50,389 bases of DNA from Candidatus Paenibacillus intestinavium (GTDB lineage Bacteria; Bacillota; Bacilli; Paenibacillales; Paenibacillaceae): the NCBI GenBank assembly GCA_019113605.1, contig DXHF01000327.1, positions 1 through 50,389 of the forward strand. The letters are read 5' to 3'. Below, piece by piece: positions 6,263 to 42,557 of this stretch. Position numbers and translations under genes: made by a program. The stretch's first letter is position 1, and every line of letters starts with the position of its first letter. The notes beneath the pieces are model-generated. The model did no database searches and was not told where the DNA came from. It worked only from the letters and a program-made list of their open reading frames with translations.

Positions 6263-6934
6263 CTAATCATTGAAATGACCATACCCAAATGAAATGTTTA
6301 CCTGCTGCTCATTTACAGCACCAACTGCTAGAATGTCTGACATCATATTTGCAAATACAGACATTTCTTTATCATCCATTCCATCAATTAATCTAATCTC
6401 CGCTGCTTTCAATTTTCTACCTGAAGCTGCGGTCAATAAATCGATAATAGGATCAATTCGTTCCAATCGCTGTTTCTTCTCAGATTCGAGTTGTTCAGTT
6501 CTTGTTTGCTTCTGATAGAATTCATCCCAATCCTTTTCGTCATACCAAAAGCGTTCACCATGAAGCTCTGTGTAGACTGCTATCCATTGTTTTAACGCTT
6601 CGTCAGATGTTTGAATGAGGTCATGACATATTCCATTCAAACGCATCCCATTAGTCTTAACGCCACGTCCACCGCGTCCTCTAGGGAACACATGGTGAGT
6701 AGTATTAGCTTCTTGACCACAACCGCATTGGCAACGACCACCTGTTTCTTCAATCAATTCCTTCACAACGCTTGCAGGAAACTCAGCTCGATCTGCTTTG
6801 CTTGGATTAGATTTGTGGTGTGCCAAGATGTTCTGTTTCCATTCAGGAACGACTTTCTTTTCCTTTTTTCGATTTTGAAGGCTGCTATATGCTTTTTTCT
6901 CTTTTACTTGCTTCACTGGCTTTGGAAACATCAT
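6263..6934 (-). CDS. HNH endonuclease domain protein
   Basis: CQCGC...HHVFPRGRGGRG..TNGMRLNGICHDLI; AAAGGTGG RBS. Confidence 0.85.
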   Translation of the reverse strand: MMFPKPVKQVKEKKAYSSLQNRKKEKKVVPEWKQNILAHHKSNPSKADRAEFPASVVKELIEETGGRCQCGCGQEANTTHHVFPRGRGGRGVKTNGMRLNGICHDLIQTSDEALKQWIAVYTELHGERFWYDEKDWDEFYQKQTRTEQLESEKKQRLERIDPIIDLLTAASGRKLKAAEIRLIDGMDDKEMSVFANMMSDILAVGAVNEQQVNISFGYGHFND

Positions 6935-7027: not shown

Positions 7028-7046
7028 AAGGAAAATTTTCCTGAGC
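7028..7046. promoter_or_regulatory. parS-like palindrome AGGAAAATTTTCCT, copy 1
   Basis: Perfect 14-bp palindrome at 7029-7042; the 19 bp match the reverse complement of 18739-18757 inside parB exactly. Confidence 0.55.
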
Positions 7047-7078
7047 TATTTAATTTACAAAGAACAATATATGTAAAG

Positions 7079-7097
7079 GGGAATGTGCGCTATTCCC
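7079..7097 (-). terminator. Hairpin downstream of the ribozyme, possible weak terminator
   Basis: GGGAAT-AGCGCAC-ATTCCC followed by CTTTA; the U tract is short. Confidence 0.45.
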
Positions 7098-7104
7098 TCG
7101 TGGC

Positions 7105-7171
7105 GGATATCCGCGACCATCGCCCTTGAGGGCTAGGTTTCGTTCGCTATCCTTACGAACTCATCAGGCGG
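7105..7171 (-). ncRNA. Type I hammerhead ribozyme with a loop II pseudoknot
   Basis: Minus strand CCGC-CUGAUGA-GUUCG(UAAGGAUAG)CGAAC-GAA-ACC(UA GCCC UCAA GGGC GAU)GGU-C^GCGG-A-UAUCC; all core residues are present; GGAUA in loop II pairs with UAUCC. Confidence 0.92.
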
Positions 7172-7314
7172 TCAATCTCATTCAGTGCATCATAAGGATT
7201 GAATCTTCTTGTCTCTGGACTGAATATTGGATCGTTTACCCTACAACTTCTCGCATCATATAAAAATTGAATCTCAAACCCTTTATGTGTCGTTAAGGTT
7301 GTCCATTCTTTCAT
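7153..7314 (-). CDS. Small protein (53 aa, not in the ORF track) whose 3' end overlaps the hammerhead
   Basis: AAGGAGTG RBS; MKEWTTLTTHKGFEIQFLYDARSCRVNDPIFSPETRRFNPYDALNEIDRLMSS*. Confidence 0.7.
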   Translation of the reverse strand: MKEWTTLTTHKGFEIQFLYDARSCRVNDPIFSPETRRFNPYDALNEIDRLMSS

Positions 7315-7376
7315 TTCAACCACTCCTTGTTTTTAATTTGGATTAACGCAACCCTAGTAGTTGCCCTCAATCATTA

Positions 7377-7574
7377 TCAAATTGAGAATCCAAGAATTCC
7401 TCTTTCATATGTGACGATAGTGATGCAATCGCTATCGTCGTTCTTGTGAGTGATATTTCCAAGCATCACCTCGTGACGTGCAGCTAGCTTATCGATGTTT
7501 TTCGTGTTGTGCTCCAAATCGACTACCTTTACCAAGTTCATATTCCCATCTACAATCTTAATGCATCCAAACAT
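7377..7574 (-). CDS. Small hypothetical protein (65 aa)
   Basis: AAGGAGG RBS before ATG 7574 (MFGCIKIVDG...); the longer track ORF runs through the promoter region. Confidence 0.7.
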   Translation of the reverse strand: MFGCIKIVDGNMNLVKVVDLEHNTKNIDKLAARHEVMLGNITHKNDDSDCITIVTYERGILGFSI

Positions 7575-7597
7575 TTTCAACGCCTCCTTCGATTTGT

Positions 7598-7699
7598 TAT
7601 ACGATAATCTATGTCGTATATAAGTTGTTACCTTAATAATATACGACTTCGTATATTTAGTCAATGGGTATTGAAAATTAATATACAACATCGTATAAT
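7598..7699. promoter_or_regulatory. Divergent sigma-A promoters with palindromic operators
   Basis: Minus strand TTGACT(7664-7659)-17-TATTAT(7641-7636); plus strand TTGAAA(7671-7676)-17-TATAAT(7694-7699); operators ATATACGA-CT-TCGTATAT 7639-7656 and ATATACAA-CA-TCGTATAA 7681-7698; extra half-sites at 7598-7604 and 7614-7620. Confidence 0.85.
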
Positions 7700-7722
7700 C
7701 TATTTTATAGAGGTGATTAATA

Positions 7723-7941
7723 ATGACCAAAACCGTTAAAGTAAGACCTAATCTCACAGCACTCTTGAAATCTAGAGGCATTACTCAAATGGAGTTATCC
7801 GAGATGACTGGAGTTCCACAAGGATCAATTAGTCGTTTTGATAAAAATGAACGTCATGAAGCAAATATTTTATTTTCAATATCGCAAGCATTAAATATTA
7901 GCATTGAGGATTTATTTGTCATTGAGGAGCAAGAAGGGTAA
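7723..7941 (+). CDS. XRE/Cro-C1 family HTH regulator
   Basis: LLKSRGITQMELSEMTGVPQGSISRF...ALNISIEDLF; GAGGTG RBS. Confidence 0.9.
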   Translation: MTKTVKVRPNLTALLKSRGITQMELSEMTGVPQGSISRFDKNERHEANILFSISQALNISIEDLFVIEEQEG

Positions 7942-7961
7942 AACCTCCTATGCTCCTTTTT
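7925..7961 (+). terminator. Intrinsic terminator of the XRE gene
   Basis: AGGAGCA...TGCTCCT stem followed by TTTT. Confidence 0.65.
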
Positions 7962-17987: not shown

Positions 17988-19105
17988 TCCTTACCTACCA
18001 CCTTTCTACTATTAATAGCTGGACGAACTTGTTCAATAAACGCTTCAAGCATGTCCAGACTTTCGGATAAACGTTTCTTTTCGCTAGTGCTTGCTGCTGA
18101 GATTGCACCAAGATTAAAAGATGTAATGCCAACCTTTTGTAGAAACTGCTTTACATGAATGCTAAATTGAACCGTATTAATATCAGCTTCATATTTCAAC
18201 TTCTTTAATCTAGCTGCTTCATGCTGATCATCAACTTCATCTGGTTGTTGAAGTTCAAGTTCTTTCACTTTTTCTTGAGCTTCCTTCAATCCTTCACGAA
18301 GGTTTTTAAGTACAAATTCGCTATTCTCCATTTCCTGCTTATGTTTAGCTTTTAGTTCGTCCTCTTTTTGCTTGATAAGCATCTGCTTCTCTTTTTCTTT
18401 TTGAGTGAGCAAAACGCTTGTCTCTTCATGATGCTTTTCGACTGCCGATGATATCGCATCATCTAACTGGTGAGATGGGATAGCATCTTTATATTGCTGT
18501 TTGATCTCCCAAAGTTCAGTTTCAGCTTGCTCAGCTCGTTCCTCAGCTTCTTGTCGCTCACGATCTAAACGATCTTTAGTTTCGATAAACGCTTTGTGTG
18601 TGCTGATTAACCCTTCATCAAGTTGTTGGACAATCTCTGGAGTAGCGTTCTCCACGATGTATTTCGCTTTTTCGTACTGCTTACCTGAGCCAAATCCAAC
18701 TTCGTCAGCTACGATATCTCTAACTTGACCAGTTTCTTGCTCAGGAAAATTTTCCTTACCTAACATTCGTTCTTTTGCTTTGATCTTCTCGATCTGTTCA
18801 AGACGTTTTCCCCACTCCACTCGCTCAGAGAAACTGAACTCTTTACGATGCTCATTCTCGCTTATCTCAAGCCTTAGTTGATGCTCTGCATCGTTTATAT
18901 CCATAATGCGAACCAACACTCGATCTGCTTCATTAAAGAAGTGAGCTCGCAGTCTACGCTCTCCTGCAATCAATTGAAAGTCTGGTGTAACAACAATAGG
19001 ATTGATAAGTCCATTGGATTTAATGTCTGCTGCTAACTCTTCAATGTTTCCGAAATCTTTTCGGATACGGTCACTAACTTTGATTTGGTTAATATCTATT
19101 AGCAA
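17984..19105 (-). CDS. Protein with a ParB N-terminal domain, HTH and coiled coil
   Basis: IEELAADIKSNGLINPI, LIAGERRLRA (GxxRxxA motif), ENEHRK. Confidence 0.88.
   Translation of the reverse strand: MLIDINQIKVSDRIRKDFGNIEELAADIKSNGLINPIVVTPDFQLIAGERRLRAHFFNEADRVLVRIMDINDAEHQLRLEISENEHRKEFSFSERVEWGKRLEQIEKIKAKERMLGKENFPEQETGQVRDIVADEVGFGSGKQYEKAKYIVENATPEIVQQLDEGLISTHKAFIETKDRLDRERQEAEERAEQAETELWEIKQQYKDAIPSHQLDDAISSAVEKHHEETSVLLTQKEKEKQMLIKQKEDELKAKHKQEMENSEFVLKNLREGLKEAQEKVKELELQQPDEVDDQHEAARLKKLKYEADINTVQFSIHVKQFLQKVGITSFNLGAISAASTSEKKRLSESLDMLEAFIEQVRPAINSRKVVGKE
18739..18757. promoter_or_regulatory. parS-like palindrome, copy 2, inside the parB-like gene
   Basis: GCTCAGGAAAATTTTCCTT, encoding KENFPE. 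Confidence 0.55.
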
Positions 19106-19204
19106 ATTAATTCTCCTTTCTATATATTGAAGGTTTTCTGTTCCTTTCTGTCGAATAATGGATTTAGACTAGACTATCCATATATTGAGAAAGGAATAAA
19201 ATCT

Positions 19205-19693
19205 ATGAACTTTGGCTACAGTCCTCCTACACCTACATACAAGCTAGCTACAATTTGCATGAACGGACACATAGTTTCTTCTGAACAGGCTAATTACCAT
19301 AAATATTGTATGGATTGCGGTGAAGGTACAACTTCGGAATGTTTACATTGTAAAGCTAATATTAAAGGTGACTTGGAACATGATTATACATTCAGTATTC
19401 TCGATAGAGTTCAAGCGTACTGTTATGAATGTGGCGAACCTCATCCGTGGACAGTAAGACTATTGGAACATGCAGTTGAGATAATTGGTCTAGATGAAAA
19501 GCTTTCTACTGAAGATAAGGAAATAGTTAAATTAGCAATACCTGGTTTGATTGTTGATATACCTTCTTCGCCAGTTTCAGTTGCAAAGTACAAGAAATTC
19601 ATGCCCAAGGCATCCGACTTTGTCCAAGAGGGTATCCAGAACTTATTAATCGATGTAGTCACCGACAAAATTAAAACCGCTATTTGGGGTTAG
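19205..19693 (+). CDS. DUF2321-like Zn-ribbon protein, oriented against the operon (moron)
   Basis: ICMNGH, CMDCGE, CLHC, CYECGEPHPWT; AAAGGA RBS. Confidence 0.8.
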   Translation: MNFGYSPPTPTYKLATICMNGHIVSSEQANYHKYCMDCGEGTTSECLHCKANIKGDLEHDYTFSILDRVQAYCYECGEPHPWTVRLLEHAVEIIGLDEKLSTEDKEIVKLAIPGLIVDIPSSPVSVAKYKKFMPKASDFVQEGIQNLLIDVVTDKIKTAIWG

Positions 19694-20272: not shown

Positions 20273-20527
20273 TTAGATTCCAATACACTGATTAGTTGAG
20301 TCGCATAAATGCGACTTAGTATCCAAAAAAATTTCAATCGCATCATCTTGGGTTAGATTGATGGCATTTGCAATCTTGTGGATCTCGCCAATAGTAAATG
20401 ATAATCCTTCAGACTTTACCTTGCGGTAAAACGTGGTTCTATTCATTCCTACTTGATCTGCCACAGCTTCTTGTGTTGTTCCTGCTTCTATAATTTTAGC
20501 TCGAAGCTTTAACATGTTTGTTTTCAT
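20273..20527 (-). CDS. Cro-like HTH regulator
   Basis: TQEAVADQVGMNRTTFYRK; divergent from cI; AAGGAGGTG RBS. Confidence 0.9.
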   Translation of the reverse strand: MKTNMLKLRAKIIEAGTTQEAVADQVGMNRTTFYRKVKSEGLSFTIGEIHKIANAINLTQDDAIEIFLDTKSHLCDSTNQCIGI

Positions 20528-42342: not shown

Positions 42343-42557
42343 AGTTCAAAAAGAAGAATTTGATAACGATGATTATACTGACGTAGCATAGTCCACATCG
42401 AATATGAAGCGAACTTGGAAAGTATAGGGTAAGCTTCCGATGTATGTTTCTTGCAGAAACATTGTAGGTTCGCGTGTACCAAACACGTACACTTGCGCTT
42501 CCGCCTTTCTCAAGTAGCACTCCATCTTCTCGGTTCTGAAAGTCCGCTTTTTGAACT
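42343..42557. mobile_element. MITE-like repeat (~215 bp)
   Basis: Terminal inverted repeats AGTTCAAAAAG/CTTTTTGAACT, internal palindromes, no credible ORF, lies between convergent genes. Confidence 0.7.

Follow-up and report, generated by a model that had tools for sequence, protein, structure and literature searches.

Introduction

Anti-CRISPR operons are controlled by Aca repressors, amongst which Aca11 and Aca13 are described as bidirectional autorepressors (PMC12282945) and the RHH-type Aca14 represses two operons (PMC13551039). Self-cleaving ribozymes form a separate strand of phage biology. Hammerheads in prophages flank genes that include the anti-restriction gene ardA, and a role in mRNA processing has been proposed for them (Perreault et al., 2011, PMC3088659). 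The pistol ribozyme (Rfam RF02679) is phage-linked, and cleavage in vitro has been recorded for a P. polymyxa construct (Harris et al., 2015, PMC4604425). Unrelated ribozyme classes share gene contexts, the purpose of which was called unknown (Weinberg et al., 2019, PMC6765202). That prophage hammerheads occur at gene boundaries and that classes share gene contexts is already published (PMC3088659, PMC6765202, PMC8782182, PMC4604425), and why bacteria and phages carry most of their self-cleaving ribozymes remains an open question (PMC6765202). A Bacillus consensus is available for boxA, and B. subtilis NusB binds such a motif (PMC13753749).

The prophage cassette described here resembles the Aca systems in combining a small HTH or RHH repressor with inverted repeats in strong promoters, variable small cargo and bidirectional control, and, like Aca14, members of its family (loci L108 and L130) are predicted from operator position to control a second promoter. 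It differs in that its cargo is without known acr genes, that the repressor is divergent in the window and its relatives whereas aca genes are usually co-transcribed downstream of acr, and that a predicted self-cleaving ribozyme closes the cargo, the word ribozyme being absent from PMC13551039. By analogy, the cassette appears to operate in the manner of an Aca-controlled accessory operon, yet it cannot be classified with these. Its hammerhead shares with those of PMC3088659 the type I architecture, a predicted stem I/II pseudoknot, the prophage setting and the position at a gene boundary; unlike them it is a single ribozyme under a dedicated divergent repressor, lies over a stop codon and precedes a boxA-like motif, and a link to a regulator does not appear in the available part of that paper. 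Compared with the shared contexts of PMC6765202, the class swap seen here takes place in one orthologous slot with sister repressors and includes ribozyme-free alleles. As in rrn-type boxA/NusB-S10 antitermination (PMC13753749), a hairpin precedes the boxA-like motif and the host has NusB, but here the motif belongs to a prophage mRNA and directly follows a ribozyme cut site, and antitermination in Bacillus is itself no more than inferred in PMC13753749. In contrast to type I toxin-antitoxin systems with their small hydrophobic toxins, the two cargo ORFs of the window are soluble, the cargo of some relatives being hydrophobic, and in contrast to type II systems the layout is divergent, HipB and PezA scores are far below cut-off and there is no toxin match. 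Each part of the cassette has a precedent; the combination of repressor and ribozyme, and the operator, were not met in the literature surveyed, which consisted mainly of abstracts; the pistol discovery paper of 2015 and gene-association supplements on ribozymes may list HTH genes close to ribozymes.

Results

A divergent XRE cassette in a prophage early operon

Judging by its named relatives, the host likely belongs to the Paenibacillaceae. The window, by which we mean the whole 50,389-nt stretch of DNA analysed, holds one arm of an integrated prophage that encodes an integrase, an ImmA-like protease, CI and Cro at 20.3-22.8 kb, next to which lies a minus-strand early operon of ParB-like, anti-repressor, replication, clamp, resolvase and HNH genes. 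The cassette is flanked by a phrog_5992 gene and the HNH gene (Table 1), and the HNH neighbour recurs in loci L001-L005, L009, L087, L090 and L092. All of the parts listed in a first-pass annotation of this DNA, namely the XRE gene, divergent promoters, operators, two ORFs and a hammerhead, are found in the window.

Table 1. Coordinates of features in and around the cassette (positions in the window)
Feature	Position	Strand	Remarks
HNH gene	6263-6934	-	first gene downstream of the slot; PHROG HNH matches
AGGAAA-N2-TTTCCT palindrome	7029-7042		downstream edge of cargo slot; candidate phage parS
boxA-like motif, predicted	7054-7066	-	11/12 bases as in boxA of one host rRNA leader
Weak hairpin, then short U/A run	7079-7097	-	z -0.9; weak terminator or boxB-like
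Type I hammerhead, predicted	7103-7171	-	stem I 7171-7168/7114-7111; core 7167-7161; stem II 7160-7142
ORF53, orphan	7153-7314	-	has RBS; last seven codons within hammerhead
Hairpin between ORF65 and ORF53	7341-7372	-	-11.2 kcal/mol, z -2.75
ORF65	7377-7574	-	soluble alpha/beta protein, small conserved family; RBS 7588-7583
Third, degenerate operator (7604-7621) and extra half-site	7597-7621		3 mismatches; just downstream of PL
PL, sigma-A-type promoter for cargo	7636-7664	-	10/12, 17-nt spacer
Operator in PL spacer	7639-7656		perfect palindrome; sole strict copy in host assembly
PR, sigma-A-type promoter for XRE	7671-7699	+	11/12, 17-nt spacer
Operator in PR spacer	7681-7698		2 mismatches
XRE/HTH_26 protein, 72 aa	7723-7941	+	Pfam HTH_26, HTH_3 above cut-off; RBS 7710-7715
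XRE terminator hairpin and U-run	7924-7961	+	-20.6 kcal/mol, z -3.7; similar hairpin in L001

The 72-residue XRE protein scores 37.5 bits against Pfam HTH_26 (cut-off 22), which places it amongst the XRE/Cro-C1 HTH proteins, and its profile matched none of the solved structures at 1e-5. The gene ends, as annotated, in a stable terminator hairpin. Since no U-run follows this hairpin on the minus strand, RNA of the early operon likely reads through it. The near-consensus sigma-A promoters PR and PL reported by the annotation lie back to back and are the two best of 12 promoter-like sites between 6000 and 9000; as shuffled sequences contain 8.9 such sites, only the quality and position of this pair stand out. 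Each promoter carries a palindromic operator between its -35 and -10 elements, again as annotated, and we found a third, degenerate site that the annotation had not described and that has counterparts in L001, L009 and L013. The operator pattern has three matches in the whole window, all inside the 150-nt gap between the divergent genes, a number reached in 0 of 100 shuffles. It is distinct from the CI/Cro motif, which sits at 20300, 20562 and 20626. The proposal of a second regulator independent of CI/Cro gains support from the cassette having its own operator, which is conserved across the family and changes with the recognition helix. The Bacillus SOS box was tried as the identity of the operator and did not match.

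Conservation of promoters and operators in the XRE family

A search with the XRE protein recovered 86 homologues at E<=1e-12. Members of the family are carried by prophages and genomes of Paenibacillus, Bacillus and related genera; at 90% identity they fall into 55 clusters, 51 of them with at least 1 kb of upstream sequence. The operator is present in 45 of these 51. Repressor, promoters and operators form the constant part of this prophage slot, and the family extends widely through the Bacillales. A PL of at least 10/12 was found in 44/55 family loci and a PR of the same quality in 35/55. Two or more TATHCG-type half-sites accompany 37 of the 47 loci with Gly in the recognition helix and 2 of the 8 without it, against 4/55 in downstream control DNA; the non-Gly group consists of only these eight loci, some of them related to one another. 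Where the helix reads QSA instead of QGS (L008 and L137), a TATGCA palindrome occupies the same place. Adjacency was also seen from the other direction: amongst 80 viral loci picked by operator alone, an XRE start lies within 150 nt in 19, and of the 55 operator-picked loci with no XRE match only one has a second operator nearby. Covariation of operator and helix, together with operator-XRE adjacency, supports the prediction that XRE binds the spacer palindromes.

L108 and L130 stand for two types of Bacillus phage. Each has a second promoter 2.7 kb from the first (positions 261 and 2945) with the operator again in its spacer, and the XRE of these loci likely controls a small regulon. Two large genes lie between XRE and the peptide cargo in both. 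Members of the XRE family are also found in slots unrelated to this one, such as next to lysis and YolD-like genes, where the genes downstream are unrelated as well.

The cargo is small, variable and mostly unique

The two micro-ORFs of 65 and 53 aa are present with RBSs as annotated (Table 1). ORF65 belongs to a family of 11 co-linear members (two long repetitive matches were left out), from which AlphaFold2 returned a model with a pLDDT of 91, an earlier model from three sequences having been poor; ORF65 is a real folded protein family. Fold searches with this model gave no match of Z>=5 and nothing informative, the rows for AcrIE2 (Z 3.8) and an Acr-bound Cas9 entry (Z 3.5) being background, and no relatives were found in viral contigs, phage records or about 400 family genomes. 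The homologue search for ORF53 returned only itself, and its best Atlas score of 0.88 is under the reliable range. Neither protein is hydrophobic (best 19-residue hydropathy 0.95 and -0.03), and neither matches a toxin family in Pfam, PHROGs or NCBIfam. The toxin role suggested in the first-pass annotation thus finds no backing in these two soluble products. A known anti-CRISPR was likewise not found amongst the cargo ORFs by family searches of Pfam, PHROGs and NCBIfam or by fold search.

The annotation had asked whether the cargo varies between loci, and it does. Collecting the three leading ORFs behind PL from 54 representative loci yielded 118 ORFs in 78 families, 67 of which are singletons. 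The median first ORF is 53 aa long; 42/49 first ORFs are of at most 100 aa and 15/49 contain a hydrophobic stretch of membrane-like character, in many cases together with a basic tail. Few of the 68 scanned could be named: Mom-like, GNAT, AimR-like, WYL, LytTR, DUF2786 and DUF3961.

A predicted type I hammerhead overlaps the end of ORF53

The hammerhead noted in the first-pass annotation, a predicted self-cleaving ribozyme, is borne out at the sequence level by a full core and three intact stems, with the correction that it overlaps the end of ORF53, the last seven codons of which form its 5' half. All core positions (C3-U4-G5-A6-N7-G8-A9, G12-A13-A14-A15 and U16-H17; described in PMC3088659) are present, with intact pairs beside the core and stem I open. 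Cleavage is predicted between 7115 and 7114, 38 nt past the ORF53 stop codon. Loop II is predicted to form a 5-bp pseudoknot with the tail at 7109-7105; a pseudoknot of at least 4 bp can form in 35/58 hammerheads, compared with 13 in shuffled pairings (maximum 23). Rfam gave no match at gathering score anywhere in the window, and the hammerhead scored only 14.1 bits to HH9 against a threshold of 52.

A pattern scan of viral contigs gave 120 hammerhead matches, 46 of them distinct with a 3' half, and 38 of these 46 were aligned with the window copy and the copies of phage Pd_22F. In this alignment 95% of cells are paired and 67 double changes occur against 21 in shuffles; because stems I and III are fixed by the search pattern, only the covariation of stem II counts. 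By its predicted structure, the hammerhead of the window is a member of a large phage type I family with a covarying stem II. In 17/21 family loci, whatever the context, the stop codon of the upstream gene lies within -20 to +40 nt of the ribozyme start.

After cleavage, the 3' product can begin with a 4-bp hairpin (7114-7103). This hairpin competes for stem I, which is why the minimum-energy fold is not the active ribozyme. In 33/58 family members the tail can likewise re-pair with the 3' strand of stem I into a hairpin at the 5' end of the 3' product, in competition with the active fold. The use of self-cleavage for turnover or processing in this cassette, as put forward in the first-pass annotation, is a plausible prediction. 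In four viral contigs (L208, L256, L216 and L264) we also observed dense arrays of three to six hammerheads in which each hammerhead stands between single small genes.

Hammerhead, pistol and ribozyme-free alleles occur in one slot

Co-occurrence of the XRE gene with a self-cleaving ribozyme in other genomes, which had been proposed as a check, was found and extends even to a different class, the pistol. A hand-written hammerhead descriptor detected the window copy alone amongst XRE-family loci, together with one chance-looking match in a control locus, and a hand-written pistol pattern missed known pistols, so a covariance model and nhmmer were used in its place. Pistols scoring 63-75 bits are present in L001, L003-L005, L008-L011, L013, L086 and L089, and nhmmer added L002. 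In L001-L005, which represent the same slot, a sister XRE drives an unrelated 53-aa ORF whose 3' half is formed by the pistol, and the arrangement in L009-L011, L013, L086 and L089 is similar. The window XRE is sister to the pistol-bearing L001 XRE (support 94/87 in a rough tree), and the 53-aa ORFs of the two loci gave no alignment with each other. Other hammerheads of the XRE family were found in L114, in L016/L096 (stem II imperfect) and in L095 (truncated); these, and the pistol of L008, lie in other slots.

All XRE-locus ribozymes share the strand of the cargo and lie at a distance of about 250-950 nt from the start of XRE, and none was found elsewhere in the +/-3 kb flanks. Control loci with distant XRE proteins gave none (80 of 100 control loci; nhmmer over all of L001-L201), and Rfam detected no twister, hatchet or HDV-type ribozymes in 60 further XRE-family loci (86 loci scanned in all). 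As background, the hammerhead model was positive in 26/151 family genomes and the pistol in 3/151, amounting to about 40 matches in genomes of about 6 Mb; matches in so few genomes make the background sparse, on the scale of whole genomes as opposed to prophage DNA alone.

Counted by cluster, a ribozyme accompanies 8/51 XRE genes and is absent from 43/51; the ribozyme is therefore an optional component of the XRE cassette. Close kin that are ribozyme-free comprise L012, L018, L087, L090 and L092. L018 carries a membrane ORF instead, and in L083-type loci the ORF and the pistol were lost together, so that a series from hammerhead through pistol to none exists within one slot. The loci L012, L087, L090 and L092 have no cargo at all, and their PL faces the conserved downstream genes. 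The presence of the same XRE and promoter pair in this slot without cargo or ribozyme is at odds with the 'self-contained' unit of the first-pass annotation, and it suggests that PL likely also reads the downstream genes.

A boxA-like motif lies downstream of the ribozyme

The hairpin said to end the unit is present; it is weak and was not predicted as a terminator. A hairpin and run follow the hammerheads of L114, L322, L328, L331, L341, L344 and L354 in a similar way. Beyond the hairpin, 44 nt past hammerhead stem I, lies a match to the boxA consensus in a host that encodes NusB, which we predict to be a boxA-like antitermination motif. Such a motif was found downstream of 7/27 family hammerheads and upstream of 0/27 (shuffle maximum 1); 5 of the 7 cases share one inherited downstream element, and several relatives carry this element without boxA. 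The general viral hammerhead set contained none (0/69). As a -35 box, the motif was rejected since no -10 element follows at 16-18 nt.

Other divergent repressors near hammerheads

We also examined 29 ribozyme-centred loci from the taxonomic family of the host, leaving out the window, one likely false match and two short contigs. A divergent HTH_26, HTH_3 or RHH gene lies upstream of the hammerhead in 10/29 and downstream in 0/29, and the ten positive loci show the same back-to-back promoters with repeats; about seven of the ten are independent, since two of them duplicate another locus of the same genome and one (L339) probably represents an ordinary CI. Phage Pd_22F provides an annotated example of this layout. 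The XRE family of the window is absent from all 29 loci, other members of its hammerhead family stand in ordinary early operons (L327, L329, L330, L336, L342 and L343), and 0/36 general viral hammerhead loci have a divergent Pfam HTH gene within 1.5 kb (104/115 ORFs scanned, the other 11 being left out as L208 repeats judged by coordinates). For these reasons the link between repressor and ribozyme is a Paenibacillaceae-centred tendency and not a rule.

Discussion

As read from the sequences compared, the locus presents a divergent layout, conserved operators and promoters, exchange of cargo and a hammerhead-pistol-none series. The best single account of these features, in which we place about even confidence, is a burst cassette under Aca-like autorepression, with a ribozyme that likely severs the cargo mRNA from the HNH operon downstream. 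XRE would bind the operators in the PL and PR spacers and repress both promoters, as the joint change of helix and operator suggests. On entry of repressor-free phage DNA into a cell, PL would fire until accumulating XRE turned both promoters off, and this negative feedback would give a short pulse of cargo proteins, as with the Aca repressors of anti-CRISPR operons. The cut downstream of the ORF53 stop would separate cargo mRNA from RNA running into the HNH operon, and the cargo mRNA would decay sooner because the cut removes its 3' hairpin. The downstream RNA would have a 5'-OH end, a small starting hairpin and a boxA-like site that could load NusB/S10. Ribosomes finishing ORF53 would sit on the 5' half of the ribozyme, so that cutting may be delayed and tied to translation. 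The cargo might then act on the host or its defences early in infection, the weakest step of the scheme. Transcripts reading through from the Cro promoter would likewise cross the slot once the prophage is induced.

Three other accounts, which are not fully exclusive of this one or of each other, have to be weighed against it. XRE and PL might be the prophage's own second-tier switch, setting the timing of HNH and later early genes, with the ORFs and ribozyme as passengers behind a strong promoter. The empty-slot loci L012, L087, L090 and L092 fit this well, keeping XRE, operators and a PL that faces a conserved gene of 51-70 aa, with HNH present in three of them, as do the lack of a strong terminator closing the cargo and a boxA-like motif that points to read-through. 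However, the same XRE family occurs in unrelated slots with unrelated downstream genes, and two ribozyme classes have been gained behind cargo in several lineages; we consider this account rather unlikely. We regard as improbable a lysogen-side toxin or defence module, in which XRE would silence the cargo, loss of a short-lived repressor through superinfection or prophage loss would release it, and the ribozyme would limit leaky toxin mRNA. A hydrophobic stretch with a basic tail recalls type I toxins, and the frequency of such stretches amongst first cargo ORFs of the family, along with three operators suggestive of tight repression, argues for this account; the window ORFs, however, are not hydrophobic, the three family databases hold no toxin match for them, and cargo can be missing altogether.

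The ribozyme itself may have no partnership with the repressor. If the hammerhead is a mobile RNA element, close to neutral, that settles where small phage ORFs end in any slot prone to recombination, its link with XRE would reflect shared location only. Copies of the same family behind ORFs of ordinary early operons, the usual closeness to an upstream stop codon whatever the context and damaged copies (L016, L095) are all as this predicts. Against it, the XRE-locus matches lie on one strand within one 700-nt zone, two unrelated ribozyme classes occupy the same slot and the whole-genome background is sparse, and we give it as small a chance as the toxin module.

The preferred reading can be extended, doubtfully, to a modular device of Bacillales prophages in which any small divergent autorepressor (XRE, HTH_26 or RHH) would be combined with a strong promoter, swappable micro-ORFs of anti-defence or host-modulating function and any fast self-cleaving ribozyme, a ribosome-gated cut ending the pulse and handing a protected, NusB-loaded RNA downstream. 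If true, this would assign a defined task to hammerhead and pistol ribozymes in bacteria and would offer a new marker by which anti-defence proteins could be found through guilt by association. The slot offers a natural allelic series (hammerhead, pistol, deleted and never present) behind one promoter and repressor in culturable Paenibacillus prophages, which makes the purpose of the ribozyme testable by swaps and dead mutants. XRE and its operator also mark the 78 micro-ORF families as candidate anti-defence or host-takeover proteins, as Aca genes mark anti-CRISPRs.

Additional observations on cargo, prophage and host

The commonest cargo is a recurring pair of tiny hydrophobic peptides, one of about 40 aa with a basic tail and one of 26-30 aa, found in L014, L015, L022, L023, L098, L099, L102, L106, L107, L114, L135, L322 and L346. 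The pair occurs behind XRE, HTH_26 and RHH repressors alike, those scanned had no Pfam, PHROG or NCBIfam match, and they are candidate membrane toxins or exclusion peptides. In L145 (53-1153) the genes that the XRE promoter faces encode a GNAT and a Mom-like DNA-modification protein, and no other cargo found is as clearly of an anti-restriction type.

At the downstream edge of the cargo slot, the AGGAAA-N2-TTTCCT palindrome is kept in 23 other loci of the same slot (among L001-L201). A second 14-bp copy at 18743-18756 lies inside the ParB-like gene, and the palindrome occurs in just two other places in the host assembly; it is a candidate phage parS site. The early operon contains a second insertion just after Cro, a 188-aa phrog_16447 gene with cysteine pairs (19127-19693, plus strand) that opposes the direction of the operon.

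The host assembly also contains 126 palindromes similar to the cassette operator, which raised the idea that a host factor reads it. This was set aside because these palindromes belong to a repeat of about 190 bp and differ from the operator by one base per half-site, the strict phage form occurring once. The repeat is dispersed, intergenic and often tandem, is found on many host contigs and has one copy near position 42388 of the window; its palindrome is present in 126 loose and 55 strict copies. By appearance a MITE or REP-like element, the repeat could act as a sink that titrates proteins of the XRE family.
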